Assembly: GCA_963749445.1 (NCBI GenBank)
Contig: CAVVMJ010000005.1
Coordinates: 34,915 to 98,914 of the forward strand
Reading direction: 5' to 3'
DNA length: 64,000 bases
From: an uncultured bacterium
GTDB lineage: Bacteria; Patescibacteriota; Doudnabacteria; UBA920
Program-made: the position numbers and the translations under genes
The notes under the pieces: model-generated
Database searches by the model: none
What the model saw: the letters and a program-made list of their open reading frames with translations, nothing else
What the model was told of the DNA's origin: nothing
Part shown: one piece after another, positions 9,226 through 62,037 of the stretch
How positions within the stretch are numbered: the stretch's first letter is position 1
How the letters are laid out: each line of letters starts with the position of its first letter

Positions 9226-9226
9226 T

Positions 9227-9270
<44 letters not shown>

Positions 9271-9300
9271 CGAGCTGGGTTCAAAACGTCGTGAGACAGT

Positions 9301-14075: not shown

Positions 14076-14105
14076 TTTATCGGCCCCCCATTGATTAACT
14101 TTTTT

Positions 14106-20404: not shown

Positions 20405-20431
20405 TAGTGTCAAGGGTGACCCTTGACACTA
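20405..20431. repeat. Second copy of the 27-bp perfect palindrome TAGTGTCAAGGGTGACCCTTGACACTA
   Basis: Identical half-sites to 4133..4161. It lies 4 nt after the stop of the preceding gene. Confidence 0.5.
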
Positions 20432-27157: not shown

Positions 27158-28594
27158 ATGAGAATTATCGCTGATTTACAAATCCATTCAAAGTATAGCA
27201 GGGCCTGCTCGCAGGATTTAAATCCTGCAAATATCGGGCTGTGGGCGGATAAAAAAGGCATTGGGATTGTGGGCACCGGGGATTTTACGCATCCTAAGTG
27301 GCTTTTGGAATTGAAGGAAAATTTGGAAGAGGCGAAACCGGGGCTGTATCGGCTGCGATCAAGCAACCTCTCCTCAACCCTCCCCTCAAAAGGGGAGGGG
27401 GTTCCGCGAGCGATGTTTATGCTTACCGCGGAGGTCTCCTCGATTTATAAACAGGGTGACAAGGTGCGGCGGGTGCATAATGTGATTTTCGCGCCGAACT
27501 TTGCGGCGGTTGACCGCATTATCAGCGGTTTGGAAAAGGCGGGCGCCAACCTAAAAGCCGACGGCCGGCCGATTATGGGCGTGCATTGCGACACTTTGGT
27601 TAAGATTGTGAAAGAAGCTTCATCAGAGGCAGAGGTTATCCCAGCTCACGCCTGGACGCCGCATTTTGGGCTGTTTGGCTCTTTATCAGGATTTGATTCC
27701 ATAGAGGAAGCTTTTGGCGACCAGTCAAAATATATATTTGCCATTGAGACCGGGCTGTCATCTGATCCAAAAATGAATTGGCAAATTTCTAAGCTGGACA
27801 ACATCACTTTGGTGTCCAATTCCGACGCGCACAGTTTGCGGAAAATCGGCAGGGAAGCCAATGTGTTTGAAGTTGACGAGAAAAAATTGTCTTATGCGGA
27901 AATTATCCGCATCATTAAAAATAAAGACCCGAAAGAGTTTTTGTTTACCATTGAATTTTTTCCCGAAGAAGGCAAGTACCATTTGGACGGCCACGCGGAC
28001 TGTAAGTTTAGCTGTCAGCCGAGCCAGACAAAGAAATTGAAAGGCATTTGTCCGGTCTGCGGCAAGAAACTGCTGGTCGGGGTGCTGTCGCGCGTTGATG
28101 ATTTGGCCGATCGCGAGTTTGGCTTTATTCCGCCGCGGGCCATTCCTTACAAGAGTGTGATTCCTTTGGAAGAAATTATTGCGGAAACTTTGGGGGTTGG
28201 GGTACAGAGCAAAAAGGTGATGGCGATGTATGAGCAAATGGTTAAACGTACCACCCCGTCTGCTATCGCAGACACCCCTCCTATTGTAGGAGGGGAGGCT
28301 CCGCAGTTATCCTTGGATGACACGCGGAGCTCTCCTCCTGGAACAGGAGGAGTACCCGCCGAAGGCGGGGGAGGTGGTAGACTTTATGGCGAATTTGCCA
28401 TTCTTTTGGAAATGCCTGAGGACCAAATCGCCCGAATATCATCAGCTGACATAGCAGCCTCCATCCTCCGCGTCCGCAGCGGCCAAGTCCGCGTGGAAGG
28501 CGGCTACGACGGGGTGTTTGGTAAAATTCACTTATTTGAAGAAGGTGAACGGGAAAAGATCCTTAAAAAGCCCAAGCAGGCTAGTTTGTTTTAA
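27158..28594 (+). CDS. PHP-domain endonuclease Q-like protein, with two in-frame palindromic insertions
   Basis: DLQIHSKYSRACS, GTGDFTHP, PAHAWTPHFG, SNSDAHS, GKYHLDGH and a CPVCGKK zinc ribbon match EndoQ architecture. Inserts lie at 27366..27410 and 28251..28379. Confidence 0.55.
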   Translation: MRIIADLQIHSKYSRACSQDLNPANIGLWADKKGIGIVGTGDFTHPKWLLELKENLEEAKPGLYRLRSSNLSSTLPSKGEGVPRAMFMLTAEVSSIYKQGDKVRRVHNVIFAPNFAAVDRIISGLEKAGANLKADGRPIMGVHCDTLVKIVKEASSEAEVIPAHAWTPHFGLFGSLSGFDSIEEAFGDQSKYIFAIETGLSSDPKMNWQISKLDNITLVSNSDAHSLRKIGREANVFEVDEKKLSYAEIIRIIKNKDPKEFLFTIEFFPEEGKYHLDGHADCKFSCQPSQTKKLKGICPVCGKKLLVGVLSRVDDLADREFGFIPPRAIPYKSVIPLEEIIAETLGVGVQSKKVMAMYEQMVKRTTPSAIADTPPIVGGEAPQLSLDDTRSSPPGTGGVPAEGGGGGRLYGEFAILLEMPEDQIARISSADIAASILRVRSGQVRVEGGYDGVFGKIHLFEEGEREKILKKPKQASLF

Positions 28595-43814: not shown

Positions 43815-43848
43815 CTAAAAAACGCGCCACGATGTGGCGCGTTTTTTT
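43815..43848. terminator. Bidirectional rho-independent terminator
   Basis: AAAAACGCGCCACGATGTGGCGCGTTTTTTT perfect hairpin flanked by A and T runs, lying between convergent genes. Confidence 0.6.
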
Positions 43849-44948
43849 CATTGATACTGGATATATACTGGAATTGGGGTAAGCTTTAACAAATCGTCCG
43901 GCTGGAGCATTGGCCCTCTGGCCGCGTCGTTATTATAAAAGAGTTTAAAGCCGGTGAATTGCACGGGTTCTTTATAAATATATTGCTTGTAGGTATTGAG
44001 CTTGTTGGCCTGGCCGCCAAAGCCGTCCATGTTCATTACAATCTGCACCTCGGGCAGCGGGGTGATTTTCTTATAATTGGTCACCATTTTTTCGGTAAAG
44101 CGATGGACAACCAAAATTTTTGGCGGTAAATTGTTTTGTTGCACGATTTGCGATAAACACCCCGCGGCGAAATTTATATCATCAGCGTCTAAAGTCCCAA
44201 TGACCGTGCCCGGCGTTTGACCGTCTTTCATCGCGAACTCCGGATCTATCCCCAAATGCACGTTAGGCAATTTTAGATATTTTTCAAGTAGTGGAATTTC
44301 GGTTTGCACATTGCTTTGGCCGAGTTGGACATCAAGGAAAACTATTCCGTGAATTTTATCAGCCATGGCCAAAACTTTGTCAATTTCCGAATCCGGCATG
44401 CGCGCGCGAAACTTGCTGTCTTTGCCCGGGCCGCCCTGCGCCACCACGGCAATGTAGTGAAGCGCGGGAATTACCGGCGTGCTTGGGTCTGCGGTTTGCC
44501 ATTTATTTACTTCCGCCGTTAACTTATCGAGCATTATATTTTCCGGATACTCGCCCAACACCCCCATGCCGGTTGAATACAGATTGCCGTAATACGCGAC
44601 AATGCGGTTAAACGGCAGCAGCGCGCCAAAGTTTGGATAAACGGTTTTTATCGGCCATAAAGCCGGCTTGGTAGACGAAGCTGTTGTTGTGGCAACGACC
44701 GGCAGATTTGCGATTTCCATCAGTTTTTTATCATAAGCGACAAAATCCAGCTGCGGCGGCGGGGGAGGCGGGACTTCGGCGGATTTAATTTGCGTCCCGC
44801 GATTTTTATCAGAAATTTGGTTTGCCCGATGGTTTTGTATCCTGAAATAAAAAAACAGTTCAAAACCCAAAACTACCAAAACCAAAACCAGCCAAAAAAA
44901 TGGATTTCTGAGCAAATCGTTTGGATTTTTATTTGAGTCTTTTCCCAT
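43848..44948 (-). CDS. Membrane-anchored extracytoplasmic hypothetical protein
   Basis: N-terminal TM, a proline run (PPPPPP) and a large C-terminal domain without diagnostic motifs. Confidence 0.45.
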   Translation of the reverse strand: MGKDSNKNPNDLLRNPFFWLVLVLVVLGFELFFYFRIQNHRANQISDKNRGTQIKSAEVPPPPPPQLDFVAYDKKLMEIANLPVVATTTASSTKPALWPIKTVYPNFGALLPFNRIVAYYGNLYSTGMGVLGEYPENIMLDKLTAEVNKWQTADPSTPVIPALHYIAVVAQGGPGKDSKFRARMPDSEIDKVLAMADKIHGIVFLDVQLGQSNVQTEIPLLEKYLKLPNVHLGIDPEFAMKDGQTPGTVIGTLDADDINFAAGCLSQIVQQNNLPPKILVVHRFTEKMVTNYKKITPLPEVQIVMNMDGFGGQANKLNTYKQYIYKEPVQFTGFKLFYNNDAARGPMLQPDDLLKLTPIPVYIQYQ

Positions 44949-45020
44949 ATTTACCTAAGTATACGCCCAAACCGGTAATATCAAAAGCGCCGCCCGGGCT
45001 TGATGAGATTACTCGTCCAC

Positions 45021-45172
45021 AAAAAAAGCGCACCAACCTGATGCGCTTTTTTTGGCTCGGCCTGCTGAACGACGTTCGTACCTGTCTACAAATTGCTACA
45101 GTGTACCCCGATGCTTCTCGCGGTATTCCCGGAGAGATTCACGGGGTTCACTAATTCATTACTCATCCAAAC
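45021..45172 (-). ncRNA. Candidate small-RNA / 3'-UTR module, copy 1. It has the core ATGAATTAGTGAACCCCGTGAATCTC ... GGCCGAGCC followed by a rho-independent terminator
   Basis: The minus-strand sequence ends in AAAAAAAGCGCATCAGGTTGGTGCGCTTTTTTT. A homologous module lies at 46297..46445 and a partial core at 59126..59165. Confidence 0.35.
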
Positions 45173-45303
45173 CCACTACAATTAAATAACGAACTTGGAT
45201 GATGGGGTGATTGTGAGCCAAAAGGAGTCCTTAGTTCCTTTTGCTTACTCACAATCGCCCCAGATGTTGTTCTGACCAATGTCGGATGCTGGTCCGGCGC
45301 CTT

Positions 45304-45684
45304 TCACACCTGCTCGGTAGACGGCGGTATCGCAGCGAACGCTTTCTGCATCAGGCTGGCCATCAGGTTAAACTGCTGGATGCCGGTCAGAAAAACGGGC
45401 GGGAGAGACGAGTCGTCTGGCACAGTTGTAGCGTCAGCGATCGCTTTCCAATCATCTGCCGCCTTAGCGTCTTTATTAAGGAAAGCGATATCGGTTGCGA
45501 CAGCGGCCAGGCAACTGTATTGCGCGGTGAGGTGAGTAAGCTTCACGTGATCCTCCCTCATGTCGAGTTCTTTTGCTATCGCATTCAGTTGCTCGATACT
45601 CTCCTTCAAGGCAACCAGCACAATAGCCAAAGCTGGATTCACCATTTTTGGAAGTTCCTCCTTCCTTCTAAATTCTTCGGTCAA
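45304..45684 (-). CDS. Hypothetical protein, GC-rich. The true start is probably the internal Met preceded by AAGGAGG at about 45645
   Basis: Protein-like composition on the minus strand, whereas the overlapping plus ORF 45241..45738 is R/C/W-rich shadow. A strong SD sits before MVNPALAIV. Confidence 0.4.
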   Translation of the reverse strand: MTEEFRRKEELPKMVNPALAIVLVALKESIEQLNAIAKELDMREDHVKLTHLTAQYSCLAAVATDIAFLNKDAKAADDWKAIADATTVPDDSSLPPVFLTGIQQFNLMASLMQKAFAAIPPSTEQV

Positions 45685-45750
45685 ACACGGCCGAGAGTGC
45701 TGCTCGTGGCTGAGTGTAACATCCGTTTCTCTAACTAATAGTGATGCTCT

Positions 45751-46149
45751 TCACTTCTTCTTGCTGATCTTTCTGTGAACCGGTTTGGGCGACCCTTCGA
45801 CCGAAGTGTGTCGAAGCTTTTCCGCGCACAATTCGATTGCCTGCCGCGCGTCCTCAGGAAACTGGATGTTTACGTCGCGTAGTGTGTCGCGGGCCAGGGA
45901 CTCGACGCCTACAGCCTCGTCAAAAGTCTTTGCCGAGCAGGCCCGCTCTTGGCCTAATTTGACGAGGGTATTGACCGTCGCCTGCAGTTGCACTTCAACC
46001 TTTGCCGCCTTCTGGTGAGCCGGCTGAGCAACGGCCAAAAAAACAACTGCCGCCCCGACTACCACACCCAGCAGAAGCAGACCCAAGATCCGAAAAAGAC
46101 CAATCTTCGTGGGTTGCGGCTGGTTAGGCGTTCCCATTAAAGTTTCCAC
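45751..46149 (-). CDS. Hypothetical membrane-anchored protein, GC-rich
   Basis: 132 aa with one TM helix (GLFRILGLLLLGVVVGAAVVFLAV). Confidence 0.4.
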   Translation of the reverse strand: METLMGTPNQPQPTKIGLFRILGLLLLGVVVGAAVVFLAVAQPAHQKAAKVEVQLQATVNTLVKLGQERACSAKTFDEAVGVESLARDTLRDVNIQFPEDARQAIELCAEKLRHTSVEGSPKPVHRKISKKK

Positions 46150-46296
46150 AACTCCTCCTATAAGGACCAGTTCTACCTATCACGCGCAATCACTACACGG
46201 TGAAAATCAGCCGTACTGGCAAGGCTGACTGATCATTGTAACAAAAAACCCTTGAATAATCAAGGGCTTTTTTGCGGAGGTTCGATTGTCTCAAGT

Positions 46297-46445
46297 CCTG
46301 TAACAAAAACACCCCAGATTATGGGGTGGAATTTGTGGCTCGGCCTCCTGAACAACGTTCGTACCTGTTTAGAAGTTGCTCTTGTTTAACCCCCACCCCG
46401 ACTCACGGTACCTCCGGGGAGGTTCACGGGGTTCACTGATTCATC
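46297..46445 (-). ncRNA. Candidate small-RNA / 3'-UTR module, copy 2 (TAG ATGAATCAGTGAACCCCGTGAACCTCC ... GGCCGAGCC plus terminator)
   Basis: It begins exactly at the stop codon of ORF 46445..46657 and ends in CCACCCCATAATCTGGGGTGTTTTTGTT. Confidence 0.35.
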
Positions 46446-46657
46446 TATGGCTTTCTCCATTTGTCCCGGCCACCGACTTTCGTATCCCGCACTCGTTCAA
46501 TATGCGGACCAACACCTGGAAATAATTTTTGTGCTTTCTTAATTGCTTTCCCTTGGGTTGGGGCTATTGCGGAAGCCCTTTTAGCGCCTGCCTCTCGCAC
46601 AGCGTAATCTTTTTGTGGTCGCTGTTCCACATACACTTTCTTGTTTGGTTTATTCAT
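46445..46657 (-). CDS. Small basic hypothetical protein (70 aa)
   Basis: Lys/Arg-rich ORF immediately downstream of the 368-aa unknown gene. Confidence 0.4.
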   Translation of the reverse strand: MNKPNKKVYVEQRPQKDYAVREAGAKRASAIAPTQGKAIKKAQKLFPGVGPHIERVRDTKVGGRDKWRKP

Positions 46658-48242: not shown

Positions 48243-48563
48243 ATGCAGGAAATTAGCAAATATATTGGCAAGAAAATACGCGATATAAGGGAAGAAAAAG
48301 GTGTTACTCAAAAAGAACTAGGGGAATTATTAAGCTATTCCCCCATGGGAATATCCCATTTTGAAAATGGCATACGCGATCTTAGACTTTCGGACATAAA
48401 GAAACTGGCCGAATATTTTAAGGTCGATTTGTCTTACTTTTTACCTGAGGGGAGCAACCCAGTACCAGAACCCACTTTTTTTAGGGCAGACGCGTCTAAC
48501 GATCCCCATGTAGAAAAATCGCTTGATGATTTTGATGCTTACTTGAATAAACTACAAAAATAA
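48243..48563 (+). CDS. XRE-family helix-turn-helix transcriptional regulator
   Basis: IRDIREEKGVTQKELGELLSYSPMGISHFENG Cro/C1-type HTH. Confidence 0.75.
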   Translation: MQEISKYIGKKIRDIREEKGVTQKELGELLSYSPMGISHFENGIRDLRLSDIKKLAEYFKVDLSYFLPEGSNPVPEPTFFRADASNDPHVEKSLDDFDAYLNKLQK

Positions 48564-49040
48564 ATGAACAATCACAGGTCATACATAGAAGAATTGGCAA
48601 ATAAAGCTTTGGAGAGTGGCGGCTGCACAAAGCCGCCCGTACCAGTAGAGGACATCGCCAAAAAAATTGGTTTGACGGTGGTTATGTTTGATTTCCCCCA
48701 GACAATTTCTGGCGTGTTAAAAAAAGAAAAAAAAGCTATTGGAGTAAATCAAAACCACCACCCGTTGAGAAGAAGGTTCACAGTTTCTCATGAGTTGGGC
48801 CACTTCCTTCTTGGTCATGAAGGATACAAGGACGAAGAATTTATTGATGACAGGTTTGATCGGCCCATCCCTCTGGAGAGGGAGGCTAACCTTTTTGCTT
48901 CTTTTTTGTTAATGCCTAAAAAGTGGGTCGAGGAGAGTATTAAAAAAAATGGTATGGAAATTCCAAGGCTGGCCAAGGAATTCCAGGTTAGTGAGCAGGC
49001 CATGACTATAAGATTATTAGAACTAAACTTGATAAAATAA
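48564..49040 (+). CDS. ImmA/IrrE-family metallopeptidase (DUF955)
   Basis: HELGHFLLGH HEXXH motif. It is adjacent to and co-oriented with the XRE gene, the classic XRE-ImmA module. Confidence 0.75.
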   Translation: MNNHRSYIEELANKALESGGCTKPPVPVEDIAKKIGLTVVMFDFPQTISGVLKKEKKAIGVNQNHHPLRRRFTVSHELGHFLLGHEGYKDEEFIDDRFDRPIPLEREANLFASFLLMPKKWVEESIKKNGMEIPRLAKEFQVSEQAMTIRLLELNLIK

Positions 49041-49087: not shown

Positions 49088-51505
49088 TTACTTTGGTATA
49101 GGCGTGGCATTTATCTCAAGCACCTTCATCACTTCATCTCCATAATGGTTAATTACCTTTACAGCTATCTTGCCAGTTTTAGGTTTTGGGAATGGACGGG
49201 ATACTGTGGAATATAACTCGTCCCAGGATTCTTCGCTAATATCAGCCTTTAGGGCTTTCTTAAGTTTTTCGTAAGGCTTGTCTGCACCAAGAAAGTAAGC
49301 GTGAGTAATAAAAAACGCTTCGCTGTTATAGTTGGTATCTATGAACCATGCCGCTATTTCGTGTTCTGTATCCCCAGAGCCACTGGAACGAATTTCGCTT
49401 TTGACTGGATCGTAAATATCTACGCCCATTACCTCCACCACCACACCGTCTTTGGTCTCTTTGACTTTTACGTCCGGTTCACCGAAGGCGAGGAATAAGT
49501 TACCTGAACCGGTCTTCTTGAGCAAATCACCCATGGACAAATCCGGATTGATTTTCACTTTCATTATTTGTAATCCATTTGATTGTGTACCTTCTGAAAA
49601 CGCAGAAGCTTCAAATGACGTGGCGGCAACAACTAAAAGATCGGCAAATTTTTTGGCAACTGTAGCGGCGTCACGGATGAAATCGTCATCTACACTACCG
49701 AATTCAGGGCCGATAGAAACCGCCACTTTTTTGAGTCCGTTATTCGTTTTATATTCTCCAACAGCTTGCACTTCTGGACCGCTTGGTAAAATATCCAAAT
49801 TTACAAACTCTACTCGCGCGCCTTTTTCACCAGTTTGTACGCCGGATTTTAAAAGATTACTGACAACAGTTTCCGCAAATCTTTCGGAAGACAACATCTC
49901 CTGTGCGTCAGAAACGCGATGCGGAGAAAGTGATTCAACGGTAAAAGGTCCAGTTACACGAACAACATTTTTATTTTCAGTAGGTTGATCATATAGAATC
50001 TCCTGCTCCGCCGCTTCATCATTGGCAAGCGATTTTAAGGTTATATGAGGCACATTTTTATATTCAAACCCAGCCGAAACAATGTGTTCGTCTATGAGTT
50101 TGTAATATGGAAATTTGGCAGTCATTAAACGAGTCCTTGCGAGGGCCAATGAAACACGCGAAGTATCAATTGTAATCCAGCGTCTGCCCCACTGCTCGGC
50201 TACAAAAGCAGTTGTGCCGGAACCGCAAGTTGGGTCGAGTACAATATCTCCCGGGTCTGTGGTCATTAATAAACATCTTTCCACTACAAAATTTGAGGTT
50301 TCAACAATGTAACTCCTTTGACTTGGTCCATTTGTGTCATACCAAAAATTAGTAATTTTTTGATAAGGAAAATCGGAACTAAACATTGCATAAGAGAGGC
50401 TTTGACCCTCTGACTTTATACGGTCCAATTTTATTAATTTCTCTAATTTATCTTTTTCAACAATCCAACTAAACCCGCGTGGAAAAGAGTACTCCTTACC
50501 TTTAAAACTAATGGAATAATCATTCCCAGAAGAATATCCTGGAGCTCTTAATGAAACTAATCTGTACCAATCACCGCGCTCATCTTTGTTCCACCTTGAT
50601 TTATTATCCGGGATATACTCTTGATAAAGTTGTCTATATTTTAACCTTTCTTTATCTTTTCCATACCAAATGATAAAATCATTCATTGTATCTAAATATT
50701 TAGCACCTAATGGCATTGTTTTTTTTCTAAATGGAATTAGCGAGACAAAATTATCTGGACCAAAAACTTCATCTATTACATTTCTAACAAGATGAACATT
50801 TTCCTCGTTGATTTGAACAAAACAACTTCCGCTCTCAGTTAACAGCTCGCGCACCACTAATAGACGATCTCGTAAATAAGAAAGGTAGGAATGGATTCCA
50901 AGTTCCCATGTATCACGAAAAGCCTTAACCTGCTCGGGTTGACGGATAAAATCCTCCAATTTATTGTCTTTCACATCTCGGTTACGTGTGGATACCTGCC
51001 AATTGGAACCAAACTTAATACCATACGGTGGATCAATATAAATTGTTTGCACCCTACCGCGCATTCCCTCTTTTTCCAACAAACTATTCATCACAAGTAG
51101 TGAATCACCCAGAACCATCCGATTCTGCCAATTGTCCTCGTGCTTGTAAAAATCTACGGCTTTGCTAAATTGCGCTTCGGCCGTTTCACCAAAAAGCATC
51201 TGCTGTGAATTATCACTGGTACCTGCTTTGAGACGAGCAATAATTGCCTCGGGTGCTATTTTTTCCTGTACATAAATAGGTACCGTTGGCACGGCAAACT
51301 CGGTTCCTTGTTCTTGTTTTCCAGCCCAAACAAGCTGGGGGTCAAGCGACGGATCGTAAGCATAATGCGTTTTTACTGGCTGTTTATCACGGGCAGAAAG
51401 TTTAACGGATTCTTCTTGCGTAGGAATACGTACGCGTTTGGCGTCATGCGTGTATGATTTTACGGGTGCGGCGGTAGTTGGTTGTGATATTTTTTTCTTT
51501 GGCAT
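49088..51505 (-). CDS. mod: Type III restriction-modification N6-adenine DNA methyltransferase (Mod-like, beta class) with an extended C-terminal region
   Basis: YIDPPYGIKF (motif IV) precedes DPTCGSGTT (motif I), the permuted beta arrangement. There are about 370 aa after motif I. Confidence 0.8.
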   Translation of the reverse strand: MPKKKISQPTTAAPVKSYTHDAKRVRIPTQEESVKLSARDKQPVKTHYAYDPSLDPQLVWAGKQEQGTEFAVPTVPIYVQEKIAPEAIIARLKAGTSDNSQQMLFGETAEAQFSKAVDFYKHEDNWQNRMVLGDSLLVMNSLLEKEGMRGRVQTIYIDPPYGIKFGSNWQVSTRNRDVKDNKLEDFIRQPEQVKAFRDTWELGIHSYLSYLRDRLLVVRELLTESGSCFVQINEENVHLVRNVIDEVFGPDNFVSLIPFRKKTMPLGAKYLDTMNDFIIWYGKDKERLKYRQLYQEYIPDNKSRWNKDERGDWYRLVSLRAPGYSSGNDYSISFKGKEYSFPRGFSWIVEKDKLEKLIKLDRIKSEGQSLSYAMFSSDFPYQKITNFWYDTNGPSQRSYIVETSNFVVERCLLMTTDPGDIVLDPTCGSGTTAFVAEQWGRRWITIDTSRVSLALARTRLMTAKFPYYKLIDEHIVSAGFEYKNVPHITLKSLANDEAAEQEILYDQPTENKNVVRVTGPFTVESLSPHRVSDAQEMLSSERFAETVVSNLLKSGVQTGEKGARVEFVNLDILPSGPEVQAVGEYKTNNGLKKVAVSIGPEFGSVDDDFIRDAATVAKKFADLLVVAATSFEASAFSEGTQSNGLQIMKVKINPDLSMGDLLKKTGSGNLFLAFGEPDVKVKETKDGVVVEVMGVDIYDPVKSEIRSSGSGDTEHEIAAWFIDTNYNSEAFFITHAYFLGADKPYEKLKKALKADISEESWDELYSTVSRPFPKPKTGKIAVKVINHYGDEVMKVLEINATPIPK

Positions 51506-51507: not shown

Positions 51508-54500
51508 TTATTCCTTAGTAAATAAATTATCCGGTATGAGGTTATCAAAACCTCTTGCCATACCGGCGCGAATAATATTTTGCGTCTCGTGTATATCCTG
51601 CACTTCAAGGATCGCCCACTTGCCGTATTTACCGATATTATTAATTGCTGGCACCCAAAGATCTTGCGTGGTTTTTATTTTCATCTTTTTTTTATCATCT
51701 TTCTTGCCAGTTACTTCTATAAGCAAATTTAATTTTGATTTATCTGGCATTTCCAGAACAGCTATAAAATCGGGCACATAATGATGAGATATGCCTTGAT
51801 GTTCGTAGGGAATAGTAAAGCCAAGACTTTGATTTTTAACATAAGCAAGAATCTCTGGCATTTGTTCCAATTTTTTAGCAACTCCTTGTTCCCATTCTTC
51901 AGTATCGGCCACCACGTAATTTATGTGGCTCTTAACTGTTTCGCGGACTGGTTTGGTTGTCAAAAAATCTACATATTGAGTGGAGCCCAGAGTATCGTAT
52001 GGTGCGAGAATTGGTAACAGCCTTTTGTCTTTTTGGTCTTCTAGATTTTCAGCAATAATGGCTTGTTGGATTTTAGTTAGAGCACCAGAGAAATATTCGC
52101 CAATGGAGAGGTAGCCTATGACCATTCGATCCTTTAAAACTACATACTTTTTGACATATTCCTCGGCAATTTTGCGCAATTGCGGGGTGAGCCAATATTT
52201 TTCGTTGCCTTCGGCATCGGTATAGTATCGTTTAAGAAGCGCCTGCGTGAGGCGGATGATTACTTCACCATCGCGACGTTCTCTAATCTTTTCTAAATTT
52301 TCTTTGACTTCCTCGCCGATTACGCCGCTACTTGTAACCTCAGTCGGTTCATTTTCAATAATAGTTTTTGATTCTTCAGAAAAACGGGCGATAAGTTTGG
52401 TCTCGTTGAGTTCGTAACGATAACCGTCGACACGCGGGTAGGTAATTTCGTATTGTTCACGGTCAGGGAGCGCATGGACACGATGAATGACTTTAGGCGG
52501 TTGTGGTGGCGTATTACCCTCGGCTTTTAGGAAGCTAAACGGTACGCCATAGACTTCGGCATATTCCGGCGTAAATTTTTCTATACCGTCTTCGGGATCA
52601 ATGGTAGTTGAATAATCTACCCGGCGCAGAGCGCGACCGACGACTTGCTCGCAAAGAAGTTGAGTAGAAAATGCGCGTACACCAAGAACATGAGTCACTG
52701 TGTTCACGTCCCAACCTTCCGTAAGCATAGAAACGGAAACAACGCATTTGATATCTTCTCCAAGCTTTCCAGGTTTGCCCACTGTGTTCATTATCTCACG
52801 TAGAAGCTCCTCGTCTGTCGGTTCGTCCCGCCCAGGGAAACGCTTGCGGTAATCTTTATGAAAGTCCTCAATTTCTTTAGTAAAAATTTGTTTAAAATCA
52901 TCGTTAACTTTTTCTCCACTTTCAATCTGAGCACTGTCAATAATGAGGGTGTTTGGACGATCGTAAAACCGCACACCATCTTCATTGCGAAATATATCCA
53001 AATTTCCCTTTTCAATCTTAAATTGACCACTGGCAGTTTCCCGTTCATAGCCAGCAATCCAACGATAAACCAATTCCGATACAGCGGTGTTGTTGCATAC
53101 GACTATCATAACCGGAGGCATGACATTTCGATCGTCTTTTTTATGTTTTAGGTACGGTTGATAGTATTTCTTATCGTAATTTCCGTATAGAGATTCCAAG
53201 GCCTCTTGCAATTTAGTTGGCAAAGTATTTGACGATAAATAATCCTTCCCGCCAGTCTTTAGTCCCTTTTTGGGCAAATCATCCCGGACATGAAGCCACA
53301 AATTTCTGAATTCCGGTTCATCATCTTTTGAGACGGTATCTGATTCAATCGGAAGTCGAGGAATTTTTACAATACCGCATTCTAAAGCGTCCAAAAGTGA
53401 AAAATCATAAATTGCCCACGGGAACATAGTGCCTTCCTGATAGCCGGAACCACGCAAAAAATAAGGCGTCGCCGAAAGATCAATTACCGCATTAACATTA
53501 ATTTTCTTTGCCAATGCTTCAATACCACTAATCCATACGCGGGCCGCTTTATTGTTTTCGTCTGCTTCTTTCCTCTCTTCTCCGGACAATTTTTCCTCGC
53601 TTGGCTTTTCGCGATAACAGTGATGAGCTTCATCATTGATTACCAAAACTCGTGGTTTACCTAAAACACTTTTGAATGCACGATTAACCATCGCGTTTGG
53701 AGTTTCTTTGATAGCTTCTTCTTTTAATAATCCTGTCGCTTTCATAACCGCGCCGACTTGGAATCGTGGGTTTTGTCTTAGTTCAAGCTGATGAAAGTTT
53801 GTAATAAAAACAGTGGCTTGTTGCAGCAAATCAAAATCTTGATATGAAACTATATCGCGTTCACGATAATAATTTTTTGGGTCGTTTGGCAAAAGAACAT
53901 TTAAGCGGTCGCGAATAGTAATGCCCGGTGTGATTATCACAAATGCGTCAGTAAATCGAGTATCTTGAGGATAACGAATTTTGTTAAGTGTATGATAGGC
54001 AATAATCATTGCCATGACGACCGTCTTCCCGGAGCCAGTTGCCATTTTAAAAGCCAAACGGTACAGACCGGGATTTGCATCTGTGTTGGCTTTTTTTAAT
54101 TCATTGATAATCCAATTTTCACCAGATTTTTCTGCCACCTCATTAATGTATATCAAAGTCTCCAGCGCTTCTATTTGGCAGAAAAAAAGTTTGTTTTCCC
54201 TAGTTTCATCACGCCAATAAGAAAGTAGATCGCGGGATGTTTTAGTAATACCTGAATATTCCGACCCTCGCCATTCTTTTATTTTTGCTCTGACTTTATT
54301 TATAAACTCGTTTTCTTTTTGAAGTTCAGTACCGAAAGCGCCGTCGGCAATATTTAAGTCGAGCTGTTTTTGTTTGGTTTTAGCCCTGGGAACGGGAATA
54401 TAAAAGCTGCTCGGGCGACGAGTATCTAATATTTCATCAGTGATCCCGCGGTCATCTGCCTTGAAATGGCGACTGGGTTCAATATATGGCGAGTTTAAAA

Positions 54501-54552
54501 TTGGATTTTTCATGAGGGGTGTGACAATGTAAAACTGACTTAATTTTAGCAC
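51508..54552 (-). CDS. res: Type III restriction enzyme Res subunit (SF2 DEAH helicase plus C-terminal PD-(D/E)XK nuclease)
   Basis: ATGSGKT Walker A, VINDEAHH DEAH box, MLTEGWDVNTVTHVLG motif VI, and C-terminal YVPDFIAV...EVTGKK nuclease motif. It lies upstream of mod, which is an unusual order. Confidence 0.8.
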   Translation of the reverse strand: MLKLSQFYIVTPLMKNPILNSPYIEPSRHFKADDRGITDEILDTRRPSSFYIPVPRAKTKQKQLDLNIADGAFGTELQKENEFINKVRAKIKEWRGSEYSGITKTSRDLLSYWRDETRENKLFFCQIEALETLIYINEVAEKSGENWIINELKKANTDANPGLYRLAFKMATGSGKTVVMAMIIAYHTLNKIRYPQDTRFTDAFVIITPGITIRDRLNVLLPNDPKNYYRERDIVSYQDFDLLQQATVFITNFHQLELRQNPRFQVGAVMKATGLLKEEAIKETPNAMVNRAFKSVLGKPRVLVINDEAHHCYREKPSEEKLSGEERKEADENNKAARVWISGIEALAKKINVNAVIDLSATPYFLRGSGYQEGTMFPWAIYDFSLLDALECGIVKIPRLPIESDTVSKDDEPEFRNLWLHVRDDLPKKGLKTGGKDYLSSNTLPTKLQEALESLYGNYDKKYYQPYLKHKKDDRNVMPPVMIVVCNNTAVSELVYRWIAGYERETASGQFKIEKGNLDIFRNEDGVRFYDRPNTLIIDSAQIESGEKVNDDFKQIFTKEIEDFHKDYRKRFPGRDEPTDEELLREIMNTVGKPGKLGEDIKCVVSVSMLTEGWDVNTVTHVLGVRAFSTQLLCEQVVGRALRRVDYSTTIDPEDGIEKFTPEYAEVYGVPFSFLKAEGNTPPQPPKVIHRVHALPDREQYEITYPRVDGYRYELNETKLIARFSEESKTIIENEPTEVTSSGVIGEEVKENLEKIRERRDGEVIIRLTQALLKRYYTDAEGNEKYWLTPQLRKIAEEYVKKYVVLKDRMVIGYLSIGEYFSGALTKIQQAIIAENLEDQKDKRLLPILAPYDTLGSTQYVDFLTTKPVRETVKSHINYVVADTEEWEQGVAKKLEQMPEILAYVKNQSLGFTIPYEHQGISHHYVPDFIAVLEMPDKSKLNLLIEVTGKKDDKKKMKIKTTQDLWVPAINNIGKYGKWAILEVQDIHETQNIIRAGMARGFDNLIPDNLFTKE

Positions 54553-54559
54553 TTTTTGA

Positions 54560-54648
54560 GAAAATAATCACTTCACAGAGATGGCCTTTGAATGTTATAC
54601 TTTAGGTACAATTTATGCCTAAACTTTGGGGAAACCCGGGGCATGGCG
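54560..54648. repeat. 89-bp inverted repeat, left copy (IR-L). Its partner lies at 61893..61981
   Basis: GAAAATAATCACTTCACAGAGATGGCCTTTGAATGTTATACTTTAGGTACAATTTATGCCTAAACTTTGGGGAAACCCGGGGCATGGCG versus the reverse complement of 61893..61981. There are a handful of mismatches. Confidence 0.6.
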
Positions 54649-54788
54649 CAGAAAAACGAGAAAAACATAAAGACGGTCATCTGTCTTGCTTTACGTTTTT
54701 CTCGTTACCAGCCGAAAGGTTGGTAGACCCGCAAGGGTCGGGCAAGCGGGTGGCCCTTTTTGTTTGCCCGCGGAAAGACCAATCAGCC

Positions 54789-56660: not shown

Positions 56661-57284
56661 ATGGTTATGGAAATTAGCAAGAATCATTTGCGTAGTTTAG
56701 ATAGCTTTATTTTGCGGGGAAAATACATATTAACTGCTTGGCCCTCGGAAAGGGACGAGCGATTTAACAAGTGGCTAGGTGAATTACGAGTATTCATACA
56801 TGATTTAGGGGAAGGTTATTATAAGATGTTTACTGATGTAGAGAAAGAAGCCGCTAGTACTTCCAGAGGCGTGGCTGAACTTAAAGTCCCTATAATACTT
56901 AATTTTTTACGCCCTTTAAGAGAGTCCTTGTTGCACAAGTCTAATACAACAAAAGTACCGACTAATTTAAACTCCAAAACCGAAATTAGCATTGGTAAAC
57001 TAACCTCGCATACGGACGGATCCATACGATATGATGGGAATTTCATACGTATGCCTAATCAGCAAAAAGATTTGTGCCGTCTTTTTATGAATAAACCTGA
57101 AAAACTAGTTACCATAGATAGGATTAGAGATGAATTGATACGGGCTGACCGCAGGAAGGAAACAACATTTGCCACAATATCTAAATATGTCAGTAAACTT
57201 CGCAATGTCTTGAAAAATTATTACAAAACGAATGTGCTAATCAACCAGCAAGAAGAAGGCTGGTACTTCCGCCCTCCAAAATAA
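56661..57284 (+). CDS. Putative DNA-binding protein with C-terminal OmpR/PhoB-type winged helix
   Basis: C-terminus QQKDLCRLFMNKPEKLVTIDRIRDELI...ISKYVSKLRNVL...GWYF. Confidence 0.4.
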   Translation: MVMEISKNHLRSLDSFILRGKYILTAWPSERDERFNKWLGELRVFIHDLGEGYYKMFTDVEKEAASTSRGVAELKVPIILNFLRPLRESLLHKSNTTKVPTNLNSKTEISIGKLTSHTDGSIRYDGNFIRMPNQQKDLCRLFMNKPEKLVTIDRIRDELIRADRRKETTFATISKYVSKLRNVLKNYYKTNVLINQQEEGWYFRPPK

Positions 57285-57550
57285 CTTATTCATATGTGAA
57301 AAGTGAATGAATTGACCCCTCTACAATAGAGAGGTCTTTTTAATTATGGAAGTTATTTATGCAGTTGAGCCAGAGCGACCTCGAGGAGTTCAAACAAATA
57401 TATAAGGCCGAAACCGGCCTAGAAATTACGGATGCCGAAGCCGTCGAGCTTGGCAATCGGCTTTTAGGATTGGTTAAATTTGTCCTCTCCGATGACAGGC
57501 CTCCATAATTTAACTTAGCTTTAAGTTTCATTTAACATTAATTTTATTTT

Positions 57551-57766
57551 ATGAACAAAAACTTAACGATGAGAGAAGTTATAAGACAACAAACTGACGC
57601 GTTTATGAAAAAAGTTTGGGATAACCATAAGGCACTTCAGGAGGAAATCCCGTGCGAAGTCAAATTAACCTTCCAATTTGTGGATTCTAAACAAGCCCTC
57701 ACACAATATAAAATCTTGAAATATGACGGCGCAGATGATGAGGATGACGATTACGATTTTATTTAG
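57551..57766 (+). CDS. Small hypothetical protein with acidic tail
   Basis: 71 aa ending DGADDEDDDYDFI. Confidence 0.3.
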   Translation: MNKNLTMREVIRQQTDAFMKKVWDNHKALQEEIPCEVKLTFQFVDSKQALTQYKILKYDGADDEDDDYDFI

Positions 57767-57796
57767 ACTAACATAAATATTATTAACTAAAAAATT

Positions 57797-59125
57797 ATGC
57801 CAGACTCTCAACCAGCAAAACGACAATACACCAAACGCAAAACGGAGGAAAAGGACAAATCTGTAATGGCGGTATCACTTGTAACGCCGGATCATCTTAT
57901 TGAAACCATTTATGACCCCCAGCTCGATATGACTAGCTATGCGGTTTTTGTCCGTCAAACCGGCAAGTGCGAACGCCACGATCAGTTCATTTATAAATCC
58001 ACGACCTACGTTCCACCCGACCGAAACAACCCTCTGGTTAAAAAAGGCTTCGTCCTTCTGGCGTCCCGGCCCAGGCCTTTAATGGAAACGGCTACGCTCT
58101 TAGAGGAAATACGCAAGTTCGTTTCTGATTACCTGACTGTCAGCCCGGAGTTTGAGGAAATCATTCCGTACTTCGTCCTGCTGACCTGGATTTACGACCG
58201 CTTTGACACCGTGCCGTACCTTAGGGCTTTGGGCGACATGGGCAGAGGCAAATCCCGCCTCCTGTTCGTCATGACCGCCTTAAGTTACAAAGCGTTTTTG
58301 GCCAATGGTGCCGCAACAGTCTCCCCGATATTTCGCATACTGGACTCCTGGCACCCGACCTTGATTTTGGACGAAGCCGACTTTAACCGAGCAGATGAGA
58401 AGAGCGAAATTATGAAGATATTCAACAGCGGCTTCGCAAAAAACACCCCGGTCTTACGGAGTGAAGATGACGGCAAGGGCGGATTTACTGTGCGGGCATT
58501 TGACGTCTACGGCCCCAAGATATTCGCTTCCCGCCATCAGTTTGGCGACGACGCTTTGGAAAGCCGTTGCTTTACCCACGACATGGACATGATTGAAAGA
58601 ACATCAAACGTACCGATAAACCTCGACGACAATTTCCGCCAGCGTGGCCTAGAGCTACGCAATAAACTGCTGACTTGGCGATTCCACAACTTTGGCAAAA
58701 TAGAGATCAATCCAAAGCTGACCGACCCGCGCGTAACTGACCGGCTCAACCAAATTTCTTTACCCCTAAAAAGCATCGCTCTGGCAGAGGAAGCCCGCAA
58801 AAAGATTGAAGGTGTAATTTACAGCCTGCACTTGGACATGATTGATTCCCGTGGACTCTCGTGGGACGCAGGGGTATTGCACGCAATTATTACACAAATT
58901 ACCGGCTTAATTGACCCCGAGGAAATAACCGTCAAGATGATTGCCGAGGAATATAACAAAGAGGCGGATGACAAAGACAAACTAACCAACAATAAAGTTG
59001 GCTGGATTTTACGGAAGAAGCTCAAAATAAAAACCGTCCGCCGGGGAGCGGGTTTTACATTGGTTTATGACGACGCTACAAAGCAACGTCTTGAACAACT
59101 AAAGCTAAAATACGGACTGACATAA
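57797..59125 (+). CDS. P-loop NTPase resembling phage/plasmid primase-helicase C-terminal (P4/D5-like) replication proteins
   Basis: Walker A-like GDMGRGKS and Walker B-like LILDEADF. Confidence 0.45.
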   Translation: MPDSQPAKRQYTKRKTEEKDKSVMAVSLVTPDHLIETIYDPQLDMTSYAVFVRQTGKCERHDQFIYKSTTYVPPDRNNPLVKKGFVLLASRPRPLMETATLLEEIRKFVSDYLTVSPEFEEIIPYFVLLTWIYDRFDTVPYLRALGDMGRGKSRLLFVMTALSYKAFLANGAATVSPIFRILDSWHPTLILDEADFNRADEKSEIMKIFNSGFAKNTPVLRSEDDGKGGFTVRAFDVYGPKIFASRHQFGDDALESRCFTHDMDMIERTSNVPINLDDNFRQRGLELRNKLLTWRFHNFGKIEINPKLTDPRVTDRLNQISLPLKSIALAEEARKKIEGVIYSLHLDMIDSRGLSWDAGVLHAIITQITGLIDPEEITVKMIAEEYNKEADDKDKLTNNKVGWILRKKLKIKTVRRGAGFTLVYDDATKQRLEQLKLKYGLT

Positions 59126-59438
59126 CCCCACCAGTGAATCAGTGAATCTCGTGAACCTCCCTTGGAGGATATATACTTGTAAGCCTATATGTCTCCGTGT
59201 TTTAATTTATTTGGGAGTTTTTGAAATATTAAACAAAGAAAAATAATATGACGAGCGTCCAAAAAAATAAGTTAATTAAAGTAGCTAAAAAGTTGCTTTG
59301 GGGGTTGAGTGAAGAAATTGCGGCTAAGGTCGATGCCGCAATGCCGACGGCCACGGAAAAGGAAAGGGAGACGGCTGATGAGTTCGTTTGGCAGGAATTA
59401 TTTAGGCAAGCAAAGCTAAAATAATTAACTTCTATGGA

Positions 59439-59903
59439 ATGACTATGGAACAAAAAACACCACAAGCCAACCAATTTACCGGCGATCCCCGGCAGGACAA
59501 GATGTGGGAATATTACATCCAGGGCATCATGCGCGGCCAAAAAAATGCCTTTCAAGCGGCAATACTGGCCGGGTACAGCAAAAGCTATGCCAACGTTATT
59601 ACCATGTTGGGTTGGTTTAAGGACAGGGAGGTTAAATTGAGGCGAGCTGGTTTTTTAAGCAGAGCCGAAGAAGTTTTGGACGAAGCGCTAGAATTGGAAA
59701 CGCACAGACCTGACGGCACGCGCGACATTAACAGCTTAAGGATAAAGGCAGATGTGGCCAAATACGTTACTTCCACGCTGGGCAAGGAATTTTACAGCAA
59801 GCGCACGGAGCTGACGGGCAAGAATGGAGAGCCTGTAATTCCCATTTTAGGGGATTTGAAGGTTCCTGACGGTTCAAGCAATGTTATAAAAGACCAAAGT
59901 TAA
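59439..59903 (+). CDS. Phage terminase small subunit-like protein
   Basis: QAAILAGYSKSYANVITMLGW matches the TerS (Terminase_2/P27-like) HTH signature. Confidence 0.5.
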   Translation: MTMEQKTPQANQFTGDPRQDKMWEYYIQGIMRGQKNAFQAAILAGYSKSYANVITMLGWFKDREVKLRRAGFLSRAEEVLDEALELETHRPDGTRDINSLRIKADVAKYVTSTLGKEFYSKRTELTGKNGEPVIPILGDLKVPDGSSNVIKDQS

Positions 59904-59907
59904 GAAT

Positions 59908-61545
59908 ATGTTAAATCAAACTAAAAAATATTTCATCTATTCCCGAAAGTCTACGGAATCGGAAGAACGTCAAATCCTTTCGATTGATTCCCAAATTAAG
60001 GAGTTGCAGGAGTTGGCCGTCCGGCGTGGCTTTCGGATTGTTAAAATATTCCGGGAGTCTCAATCCGCGAAAGAGCCTGGCCGTCCCGTGTTTGCAAAGA
60101 TGATGGAGGGCATTGCTAACGGCGACGCCAGCGGCATTCTTTGTTGGAAGCTTGACCGCTTGGCTCGTAATTCTGTGGACGCTGGCGCCATAATTTGGGC
60201 GCTCAAAGATAAAGGCATTGAAATAAACACGCCTACACAGAGTTACAGCCATGCCGATGAGAATAGCATTTTGATGTATTTGGAATTTGGGATGAGCCAG
60301 AAGTACATCGACGACTTGTCTAAAAACGTAAAGCGCGGTTTAAAGACAAAAGTCGGGCAGGGTTGGATGCCCGCTTTTGCCCCGATTGGCTACATAAACA
60401 CTCGGCTGGCTGACAGAGGGGTCAACACTATCGTTCCCGACCCCGAACGTTTTCCTTTGGTGCGGCAGGCTTGGGATTTTATGCTTACGGGGCTTTACAC
60501 ACCCCAACAAATTGTTGACAAATTAAACAAGGAGCTTGGTTACCGATCAAGACCGACAAAGAATTGCCCAAGCAGGCCGCTCGGCGACACCACGATTTAT
60601 AGAACTTTCAACAATCCGTTTTATTTTGGAATGTTCCGTTATAATGACCAGCTCTGCGAAGGGCATCACGAACCAATGGTTTCCAAAGCGGAATTTGATC
60701 GCGTCCAAGTGCTTTTGCACAAACGCGAGAACCCTCGCCCCATAAAGTACAGTTTCACCTATGGCGGGTTAATTCGGTGCGCCTGTGGCTTAAGTATAAC
60801 CGCGGAGAAGCGCGTTAAGCACCAGCAAAACGGGAACACGCACGAATACACTTATTACCACTGCACAAAGTCAAAAGTGCCACGCTGTGCCGAGCAATCC
60901 ATTTCAGAGGAGGAGTTGGAGGCCGAAATCGACAGGGTAGTGTCGGAGTTGGAAATCTCGCCGAAATTTCGGGACTGGGCTTTTTCCAAACTTCAAAAAA
61001 TGAATGAGCAAGAATCGGCCGGGCGGCGGGAGTTGTTAGCCCGTCAACGCAAGGCTTACGATGAATGTTTAAAAAAGATTGACGGGCTGATAGAAATGCG
61101 CGCGGCTAAGGAGATTGGCGCGGAGCAATTTAAAAGCAGGAATGACGCCTTACTTGCTGAAAAGGGGCGGCTGAACGAGGCATTAAACGGCACGGACGAG
61201 TTGGTTTCCGACTGGGTAAAAAAAGCCGAAGCCGCTTTTGATTTTGCTACTCTGGCTAGGAAACGTTTTGTTAAGGCAAGTCCGGAAAAGCGTCGTGAGT
61301 TTGTTGCGGCTATGTCCGAACCTTCGAACCTCATTTTAAATAACAAAACACTCGATTTTATAAAGAGTAGTCCGCTGTTTGTGATTAAAAAAGCCGTAAA
61401 GGGCCACAAGGAAGTTAAGCCAACCTTCGAACCTCTTTTTAATACGGCGGACAAACGTAAAGGCCACCCTTTAGGGGTGGCCAATTCACGATGGCTCGGG
61501 AGGTGGGATTCGAACCCACGACCCATCGGTTACACCTACCCTTAA
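59908..61545 (+). CDS. Large serine recombinase (resolvase catalytic domain, recombinase domain, zinc ribbon)
   Basis: YSRKSTESEERQILSIDSQ catalytic serine region, DRLARN, and a C-terminal Cys cluster CACG...HC...C. Its 3' end runs into the tRNA 3' exon. Confidence 0.8.
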   Translation: MLNQTKKYFIYSRKSTESEERQILSIDSQIKELQELAVRRGFRIVKIFRESQSAKEPGRPVFAKMMEGIANGDASGILCWKLDRLARNSVDAGAIIWALKDKGIEINTPTQSYSHADENSILMYLEFGMSQKYIDDLSKNVKRGLKTKVGQGWMPAFAPIGYINTRLADRGVNTIVPDPERFPLVRQAWDFMLTGLYTPQQIVDKLNKELGYRSRPTKNCPSRPLGDTTIYRTFNNPFYFGMFRYNDQLCEGHHEPMVSKAEFDRVQVLLHKRENPRPIKYSFTYGGLIRCACGLSITAEKRVKHQQNGNTHEYTYYHCTKSKVPRCAEQSISEEELEAEIDRVVSELEISPKFRDWAFSKLQKMNEQESAGRRELLARQRKAYDECLKKIDGLIEMRAAKEIGAEQFKSRNDALLAEKGRLNEALNGTDELVSDWVKKAEAAFDFATLARKRFVKASPEKRREFVAAMSEPSNLILNNKTLDFIKSSPLFVIKKAVKGHKEVKPTFEPLFNTADKRKGHPLGVANSRWLGRWDSNPRPIGYTYP

Positions 61546-61821
61546 ATTTCTTTAAGGAGTGGACTATATCATCATCCTGTCTGGCTCGTCATGTGGGATT
61601 CGAACCTAAAGGATGCGAGGCGCTTCCCATCCGCCTATGGCGGAAAGTACTCCCGTAAAGGGATAGTCTCTGAACCTTCCCCAAAAGTTGGGGCTTGGCT
61701 GCTGATTGCCATTTTAAAGGCTTCCAGCAATTCACCTCGTGTTTCCATTCTCAATTACTTGAGAAGGCTGCAACTTATGTATTACAGCCGATTGCTCTAC
61801 CGCTGAGCTACTCCCGAACGA
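61497..61821 (-). tRNA. tRNA-Asn (anticodon GUU) interrupted by an approximately 250-nt group I intron in the anticodon loop
   Basis: 5' exon TCGGGAGTAGCTCAGCGGTAGAGCAATCGGCTGT (61821..61788). 3' exon TAACCGATGGGTCGTGGGTTCGAATCCCACCTCCCGAGCCA (61537..61497). The acceptor strands TCGGGAG/CTCCCGA pair. The intron guide GCAGCC pairs with exon GGCTGT with a terminal U:G. The intron ends in G and has P7-like AGACTA / ATAGTCC. Confidence 0.6.
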
Positions 61822-61892: not shown

Positions 61893-61981
61893 CGCCATGC
61901 CCTGGGTTTCCCCGAGGTTTAGGCATAAATCGTACCTAAAATATAACATTTAAAGGCCATTTTTGTGAAGTGATTATTTTC
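61893..61981. repeat. 89-bp inverted repeat, right copy (IR-R), immediately upstream of the intron-containing tRNA
   Basis: Reverse complement of IR-L. Confidence 0.6.
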
Positions 61982-62037
61982 CAAATTAGTGATATAATCT
62001 TGATAGACTTTCGTACAGATAAACTAATAATAAACAT

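Follow-up and report, generated by a model that had tools for sequence, protein, structure and literature searches.

Hexamer repeat triplets after a Rep-type helicase gene and in two detached modules of a Patescibacteria genome as candidate iterons

Iteron origins that lie downstream of genes for self-loading helicases are well known. Plasmids can carry initiator-binding direct repeats outside the origin as well, such as incA of P1 or the extra arrays of F and RK2, and these auxiliary clusters, whose role in control has been demonstrated, titrate the initiator or pair with it but do not fire, and lie no more than a few hundred bp from rep and ori. Small RNAs (sRNAs) derived from 3' untranslated regions (3'UTRs), such as CpxQ and SroC, occupy a comparable place at the end of genes, between the stop codon and the mRNA's own terminator, and are co-oriented with the gene. 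In Staphylococcus aureus pathogenicity islands (SaPIs), the origin comprises 6-12 penta- or hexanucleotide iterons immediately downstream of the rep open reading frame (ORF), half of them on each side of an AT-rich region, in opposed orientation and with at least two per side, which are read by the winged helix of the self-loading helicase (PMC9371898). Here we describe a repeated module in a 64,000-nt stretch of contig CAVVMJ010000005.1 (the window), from an uncultured bacterium of the Doudnabacteria (Patescibacteria). The module is present in two full copies on the minus strand, A and B, and in a partial copy on the plus strand, C, which follows the gene for a 442-aa Rep-type replicative helicase. 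The reading that we favour, and consider reasonably probable, is that the triplet of direct repeats common to all three copies is an iteron array bound by Rep, with C as the origin-proximal array of the helicase-encoding element and A and B as diverged orphan duplicates.

Copies A (45162-45054, minus) and B (46447-46337, minus) each extend over about 110 nt, are approximately 83% identical to one another over this length and run on into an intrinsic terminator, while copy C (59134-59168, plus) has only about 38 nt in common with the start of A and B, namely the 5' part and a CCTCC..GGAGG palindrome. An earlier inspection of the bare DNA (the sequence-only reading) had already claimed that the module occurs twice on the minus strand, that a rho-independent terminator ends each full copy, and that a third, partial copy follows a primase-like gene on the plus strand, all of which was borne out. 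A repeat search of the window recovered A and B as two repeat families (D3, 45049-45109 versus 46332-46392, 82%; D11, 45117-45159 versus 46402-46444, 84%) and the match to copy C as an inverted repeat (I8, 93% over 27 nt). When the window was scanned with a hidden Markov model (HMM) built from A and B, only these two copies themselves (E ~1e-34, self-matching) and copy C (E 6e-4) were found; a 19-nt pattern of the 5' part matched three times, with 0.04 matches expected by chance, and a 29-nt pattern of the 3' part twice, with 0.00 expected. C is separated from the full copies by 12.7 and 14 kb, on the opposite strand, and resembles B more than A, both in the 27 nt matched at 93% and in the CCTCC..GGAGG palindrome. 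The full module of the A/B type was seen in one genome only.

The 5' block of the module, common to A, B and C, consists of three direct repeats of RTGAAY plus 2-3 nt, amounting to 27 nt with a repeat period of 9 bp. The triplet reads GTGAATCA GTGAATCTC GTGAACCTC in copy C (59134..59159, plus), ATGAATCA GTGAACCCC GTGAACCTC in copy B (46419..46444, minus) and ATGAATTA GTGAACCCC GTGAATCTC in copy A (45134..45159, minus). TGAA is invariant across the three copies, and substitutions are confined to the sixth position of the hexamer and to the spacers. Throughout the window, same-orientation tandem clusters of the hexamer are limited to A, B and C; an additional close pair, at 28526/28545, is a single inverted pair. 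The sequence-only reading had the core beginning within 0-3 nt of a stop codon in two cases and containing the mini-frame ATG AAT CAG TGA. This holds for copy B, which starts 0 nt after the TAG of a DUF2188 gene (ORF 46445-46657) and has the frame intact, but not for the others: the first repeat of C stands 8 nt after the TAA of the 442-aa gene and starts with GTG, and A reads ATG AAT TAG and has no credible ORF stop adjoining it, being located about 140 nt past a 126-aa ORF and after a long hairpin. Both the tendency to follow stop codons and the short pseudo-ORF are explained if the 5' block is an iteron array.

The gene that precedes copy C (57797..59125, plus) encodes a protein of 442 aa with the Walker A motif GDMGRGKS, for which no sequence match was obtained in Pfam, NCBIfam, PHROG or PDB. 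It has 792 homologues, mostly from Patescibacteria metagenomes, some of them fused to Prim-Pol and PriCT_1 domains; in others Prim-Pol is encoded next to the helicase. An AlphaFold (AF2) model built on 32 homologues, with a mean predicted local distance difference test score (pLDDT) of 88, was matched by Foldseek to the helicase region of the NrS-1 primase-polymerase (E 2.4e-8), to SaPI PriRep1 (E 6.5e-6) and to the SaPI5 primase-helicase (E ~1e-5), with further structural matches to MCM, to the SCCmec Cch helicase and to the PrimPol of African swine fever virus (ASFV). The C-terminus of the model folds into a helix-helix-beta-hairpin unit that resembles a winged helix. Judged by these structural matches and by the winged-helix-like end of the model, the protein is an MCM/SF3-like, Rep-type self-loading replicative helicase. 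Calling the gene primase-like, as the sequence-only reading did, came close, except that a primase domain is absent from the window's own gene.

Triplets of this kind are found directly after homologous helicase genes in other elements. In L028 and L029, whose Rep proteins are 48% and 44% identical to the 442-aa protein, a gene for a winged helix-turn-helix (wHTH) protein, a small ORF, the Prim-Pol/helicase gene, an intergenic region of about 200 nt and a large serine recombinase gene follow one another; the window element is arranged as wHTH gene, small ORF, 442-aa helicase gene, putative origin region and large serine recombinase gene, with two extra small genes compared to L028 and L029. 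At the same position as in copy C, and with the same type of repeat, the intergenic regions of L028 and L029 carry the triplet GTGAACTT GTGAATCTT GTGAACCAT, which starts 6-8 nt after the rep stop and is followed by 64-66 nt at 67-73% AT and then by the inverted triplet ATTCACGGGGTTCACGGGTTCAC. A profile search of IMG/VR returned 68 distant homologues (28-38% identity), in whose loci GTGAAY has a density of 4.4/kb over the 300 nt that follow rep and of 0.95/kb elsewhere. Of these 68 loci, 15 have an exact tandem triplet with a spacing of 8-11 nt in the 150 nt that follow rep, as against 33 of 2410 control windows (1.4%), and half of these triplets begin no more than 8 nt from the stop codon. 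The repeated word varies from element to element (GTGAAC, ATGAAC, GTGAAG, GTGAGG, TGTAAAC and others), as is to be expected for element-specific iterons. L041, L055, L064 and L074 show a forward triplet, a spacer, an inverted triplet and then further triplets; in these four, as in L028 and L029, opposed repeats are arranged around an AT-rich centre. An unrelated phage contig that was found by DNA pattern alone (L012) contains an ORF that looks, by eye, like the C-terminal portion of a P4-type primase-helicase; 3 nt after the end of this ORF comes AAAGTGAACCTCGTGAACCTC, with an 85-nt spacer and inverted copies beyond; the repeat, GTGAACCTC, is present twice after the helicase stop. As a separate observation, four unrelated IMG/VR viral contigs (L013-L015, L020) contain long tandem arrays of 9-bp units, CGCGTGAAC or CTCGTGAAC, in 9 to more than 16 copies, and the array of L020 reaches within about 270 nt of the contig end.

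Within the window, copy C is the only one with an initiator-helicase gene beside its repeats, and its repeats lie immediately downstream of the rep ORF, whereas those of A and B do not. Its triplet is followed by a CCTCC-CTT-GGAGG palindrome and an AT-rich stretch (59156..59250, plus) that includes a hairpin with a U-rich tail; the 90 nt after the repeats (59161-59250) are 73% AT, compared with 55% for the window, making this stretch a candidate for a DNA-unwinding region, a rep terminator, or both. The arrangement of at least two opposed repeats on each side of an AT-rich centre was not seen in the window, C having the AT-rich stretch only.

The 3' block of the module, ACAGGTACGAACGTYGTTCAGSAGGCCGAGCC, is restricted to A and B among the window copies and centres on the palindrome GAACGNCGTTC. 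Its core is identical at 31 of 33 positions between the two, reading ACAGGTACGAACGTCGTTCAGCAGGCCGAGCC in copy A (45054..45085, minus), where the palindrome GAACGTCGTTC is perfect, and ACAGGTACGAACGTTGTTCAGGAGGCCGAGCC in copy B (46337..46368, minus), where the GAACGNCGTTC palindrome is imperfect. In copy B, the 5' block is connected to this core by a linker of 44% AT (46369..46418, minus) that is partly conserved with A and contains CCTCCCCGGAGG and an ACCCCG/CGGGGU pair with pairing potential. The intrinsic terminators, GCGCATCAGGTTGGTGCGC plus T7 in A (45021..45046, minus; hairpin 45046-45028) and CACCCCATAATCTGGGGTG plus T5 in B (46305..46328, minus; hairpin 46328-46310), stand at equal distance from the module, and their stems have no sequence in common and are not homologous; an A-run upstream of the copy A terminator may render it bidirectional. 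The conservation of the cores at 83-94% identity while the terminator stems were fully turned over suggests that the cores are constrained. A related genome contains the 3' block alone (L007 3277-3251, and its duplicate L008; nhmmer E ~3e-4 to 7e-4), without repeats and without terminator, upstream of an unrelated gene, PNP_UDP_1. As each block is thus found without the other, the 5' block in C and the 3' block in L007, the module is a fusion rather than a single unit. Each time that the 3' block occurs (A, B and L007), a sigma-70-like promoter begins 71-79 nt downstream, as counted by eye. The one that follows B (46235..46264, minus; TTGATT, 17 nt, TGTTACAAT) is embedded in a recurrent motif, CTTGATTNNTCAAGGGTTTTTTG, and serves a two-gene cassette located between B and A; a second terminator considered at this place was rejected, the sequence being that of a sigma-70-like promoter (TTGATT, 17 nt, TACAAT). 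The motif around the cassette promoter recurs twice in L007. Its promoter-like part, CTTGATTNNTCAAGKGTTTTTTG followed by TAnnnT, is found at 46242-46264 and at L007 3159-3181 and 4840-4862, upstream of unrelated genes in two genomes, and may be a lineage-typical strong promoter or operator.

We propose that the C-terminal winged helix of the 442-aa Rep would read the hexamer repeats right after rep, and that copy C would be the element's own origin, or a remnant of it, followed by a stretch that should be easily melted. A and B would be old, diverged duplicates of a C-type array and the adjoining CCTCC/GGAGG palindrome, in which the duplicated array became joined to a 3' core palindrome resembling a protein-binding site, and then to an intrinsic terminator. 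Since they contain neither an AT-rich spacer nor an inverted repeat set, A and B are probably not working origins; it is more likely that they are orphan Rep-binding arrays or origin relics, placed between the end of an operon and a terminator, where copy A would end transcription at the edge of a putative genomic island and copy B would precede the cassette promoter. Several observations weigh against this interpretation. An inverted repeat set is missing within 350 nt of copy C, which therefore may be a half-origin, falling short of the full origin definition. No rep gene was found beside A and B, whose neighbours are the DUF2188 gene and the cassette, and the sequence after their repeats is GC-rich (44-48% AT). 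Furthermore, all three copies are co-oriented with flanking genes and located ahead of a hairpin and U-run, as an RNA element would be. Finally, the assignment of the triplets as iterons is silent on the near-identity of the 3' core in A and B and leaves unexplained why some 110 nt were retained at about 83% identity beside fully diverged terminator stems.

The cassette between A and B (45304..46149, minus; 51.6% GC) encodes proteins of 132 and 126 aa without informative homologues. Their description in the sequence-only reading as two small hypothetical membrane or secreted proteins is supported for the 132-aa protein, which has an N-terminal hydrophobic or transmembrane helix, whereas the 126-aa protein gave no family match. 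The interval was also said to be GC-richer than its surroundings, and to a modest extent it is: 45173-46296 has 51.6% GC, compared with 45.4% for the window, and 4.7% of the window's 1.1-kb segments reach this value. On the other side of B, an operon of genes for a 124-aa, a 368-aa and a DUF2188 protein terminates at this copy; the 368-aa protein has one homologue only, on a 2-kb contig that ends short of the relevant region. The whole region of about 45.0-61.5 kb (~16.5 kb) looks like a genomic island. It includes an Xre/ImmA pair (48243-49040), a type III restriction-modification system (Mod 49088-51505, Res 51508-54552) and the Rep/serine-recombinase element (56661-61545), which adjoins a transfer RNA (tRNA)-Asn-like gene. 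The ORF of the large serine recombinase (59908..61545, plus) abuts this gene and runs into the tRNA 3' end. The tRNA-Asn(GTT)-like gene itself (61490-61815, minus) was missed by ARAGORN and has a group I intron in its anticodon loop (Rfam 61793-61540, 109 bits); the intron match also includes a second 25-nt segment resembling a tRNA 3' end (61582-61606; 88% identity to 61492-61516).

At the other border, homology to the related chromosome L007 resumes at about 45010, no more than about 15 nt from the copy A terminator, and runs through the promoter of a gene for a 366-aa protein, so copy A is the last feature of the island. This conserved promoter region (GGCGCTTTTGA...GGCGTATACTTAG; 44949..45004, minus) is located downstream of the copy A terminator and belongs to the 366-aa gene itself, so that A is not the leader of that gene. 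A riboswitch or leader reading for A was rejected on this ground and because orthologous 366-aa loci (L003-L009, L099-L102) are free of the module; some of them have tRNA genes or a different island upstream. The 366-aa protein (43848-44948, minus) is membrane-anchored, and at least 8000 homologues from across Patescibacteria are 57-76% identical to it; it gave no match in Pfam, NCBIfam or PHROG and represents a highly conserved protein of the candidate phyla radiation (CPR) without assigned function. Related metagenome contigs differ in whether another island of similar content (methylase, DUF2188, Xre, ImmA, serine recombinase) precedes the 366-aa gene, as seen in L099-L101 versus L102.

The orientation of the copies leads to the question of whether A and B are RNA elements instead, either an sRNA of about 130 nt, 3'UTR-derived or independent, or a cis-acting stability or attenuation element, with the RTGAAY repeats as RNA-protein binding site or seed and the terminator as 3' end. 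We consider this unlikely, even though every copy runs in the direction of its upstream gene and has a hairpin and U-run at its end, and the ~110-nt core was kept while the terminator stems changed completely and retained their position. The fold of copy A is better than those of its shuffles (z -4.7 with the terminator, -2.8 without), but that of copy B is not (z -0.3 and +1.3, respectively). Compensatory change between A and B amounts to a single RNAalifold pair, out of 26 predicted, that is altered on both sides, together with a U-G to G-C change in a small GAGCAAYUU hairpin noted by eye; the consensus helices are almost all invariant and so uninformative either way, with only two full copies compared. 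For copy C, alternative structures are conceivable, as CCUCC, which overlaps the last repeat and its spacer, might pair with a GGAGG that doubles as the 5' arm of the hairpin further downstream. On the other hand, gathering thresholds gave no Rfam match on the module, and relaxing them to E up to 10 brought up terminator-driven noise only; no promoter was predicted upstream of A or B. A covariance model made from A and B found nothing new, its only matches being A, B and C themselves, the 3' core of L007 and the repeats of L028, and no further homologue was obtained by HMM, covariance model, exact-pattern scans (genomes, metagenomes and viruses, among the matches listed) or spurious-ORF search. 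The two blocks occur separately, in C and in L007, which speaks against one folded unit, the DNA level offers a direct explanation of the 5' block, and the 1-nt centre of the GAACGNCGTTC palindrome suits a protein dimer on DNA, not an RNA hairpin. With respect to Rfam, the fold of B, covariation and the covariance model, the sRNA, 3'UTR or cis-regulatory RNA proposed by the sequence-only reading thus gained no support.

The same tight centre, in copy A that of the perfect GAACGTCGTTC palindrome, with too little room for an RNA hairpin loop, would fit a DNA operator or upstream activating site in the 3' core, bound by a dimeric regulator of the next promoter and adjacent to the repeat array by chance. 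The regular spacing of the promoter in three of three occurrences and the L007 core (3277-3251), which does without repeats and terminator and precedes the unrelated PNP_UDP_1 gene, point in this direction; yet there are only these three occurrences, the L007 match is modest (E values as above), orthologues of the 366-aa gene are without the core, in A and B a terminator intervenes between core and promoter, and no candidate regulator was found, so we judge the proposal to be improbable. Somewhat doubtful, but compatible with the assignment of the triplets as iterons, is the explanation of A and B as duplicated ends of the cassette (promoter, 132-aa and 126-aa genes), which recombination at a module already present at the island edge would have brought in, leaving copies without a function of their own. 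Direct repeats indeed bracket a GC-richer 1.1-kb segment that has its own promoter, A is next to the point where L007 homology resumes, and the closer similarity of B to C would fit a descent from a C-like array to B and from B to A. However, about 83% identity and unrelated terminators make any duplication old, and the cores would then have been kept by selection; moreover, there is no empty site among L003, L004, L007 and L099-L102, whose neighbourhoods differ, and no recognisable recombinase site or target duplication. If A and B do bind Rep, they might even act as Rep-responsive switches: Rep would accumulate on induction of the element and load on the triplets that precede the terminators at the borders of cassette and island, either blocking or releasing transcription or locally over-replicating the 1.1-kb cassette, and would thereby couple cassette expression or copy number to the element, with the 3' core as partner site for a second protein. 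This we regard as very unlikely.

Sequence databases were also scanned with exact patterns. The 5' core gave one chance match in the GTDB species genomes, within a coding region of a Pseudomonadota metagenome-assembled genome, the gapped pattern of 5' and 3' parts gave four unrelated matches in JGI metagenomes, and patterns of the 3' core gave none in IMG/VR among the matches listed; the absence of the module elsewhere rests on such exact-pattern scans and is weak evidence. Searches with blastn against GenBank phages and PLSDB plasmids produced nothing relevant, and an antisense open frame across copy A, compared with 1.84 billion proteins, matched two long repetitive proteins only. A number of other identities were dropped. 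A T-box was suggested by a likeness to GGUACCGYGAG but has no Rfam match and the wrong distance to the terminator; programmed frameshifting or readthrough is incompatible with the different registers, relative to the upstream genes, of the open frames across B and C; and a tRNA-like 3' end does not conform to the T-loop consensus. A split origin, reunited by inversion between the 106-nt inverted repeats 54543-54648 and 61893-61998, was discarded as this geometry leaves C apart from A and B. For a miniature inverted-repeat transposable element (MITE) or other small transposable element, terminal inverted repeats are missing at the homology boundaries, and homology stops before the non-homologous terminators. 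An integron attC site was rejected as well, since, by inspection, nothing beyond TGAAC is common to the 5' end and the reverse-complemented 3' end, and there are two copies only.

Several further features of the window deserve mention. A LOOT RNA is encoded at 54616-54739 (Rfam, 73.8 bits), and its promoter region and first hairpin (54543-54648) have an inverted duplicate of 106 nt (87%) at 61893-61998, where the duplicate precedes the intron-containing tRNA and not a LOOT RNA. The 23S rRNA gene measures about 5 kb (5037-9996) because of large insertions, which include at least one group I intron (9272-9522); a second intron is probable in view of a 49-nt repeat resembling an intron end at 8541-8589 and 9489-9537, and ORFs lie within the gene at 7328-7672 and 8023-8550. 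Intergenic repeats comprise a 39-nt sequence, TTGYRAGRAGYCAGGGCTTTATCTGGCGACGAAGCAATC, at 4171-4209 and 24225-24263 (90% identical), each time followed by a short GATTGCC hairpin, and a 27-nt palindrome, TAGTGTCAAGGGTSACCC.TGACACTA, at 4134-4160 and 20405-20431. GC-rich repeats at 14903-15106 and 28213-28378 (90 nt at 70%, 34 nt at 85%) lie inside ORFs 13977-15542 and 27158-28594 and could be paralogous domains or inserted elements.

No published description of such origins for this CPR family of Prim-Pol/helicases was found in the literature, and the present one is, as far as we found, the first at sequence level for the large, unannotated group of Prim-Pol/helicase and serine-recombinase elements and phages of Patescibacteria, in which some 800 homologues share a helicase domain without a Pfam family. 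We know of no genetic tools for Patescibacteria, and a defined rep-ori pair would be a natural starting point for a replicating vector in the CPR. For annotation, it follows that conserved repeats that immediately follow a stop codon and precede a terminator may represent origin DNA and not RNA.

Compared with the described systems, the module resembles integron attC sites and the Vibrio cholerae repeats in repeat length (about 120 nt), in its place behind cassette ORFs and in the bracketing of small, promoter-poor genes; it differs from them in having neither the R''/L''...L'/R' dyad nor the GTTRRRY core, and the cassette between A and B has its own promoter. No tyrosine recombinase was present among the roughly 30 window proteins scanned, a scan that did not include a search aimed at an integron integrase. 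With CpxQ and SroC the module shares position and orientation, but not evidence of a processing site or internal promoter, conserved structure or an Rfam family. Relative to the auxiliary iterons of plasmids, the candidate arrays of A and B are far removed, lying 12-14 kb away in an integrated island. The closest likeness is to the pri-rep-ori region of SaPIs and other phage-inducible chromosomal islands (PICIs), where a self-loading hexameric helicase with a C-terminal winged helix is sometimes fused to a primase, and L028, L029, L041, L055 and L064 show exactly the SaPI layout. The elements described here differ in the use of a Prim-Pol-type primase, which is absent from the window gene, in their large serine recombinase as integrase and in the triplets with a 9-bp period, of which C has one set only and A and B are detached from rep and from the AT-rich region. 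What is unusual by comparison with all these systems are the orphan arrays A and B, seen in a single genome and fused there to a second conserved block.

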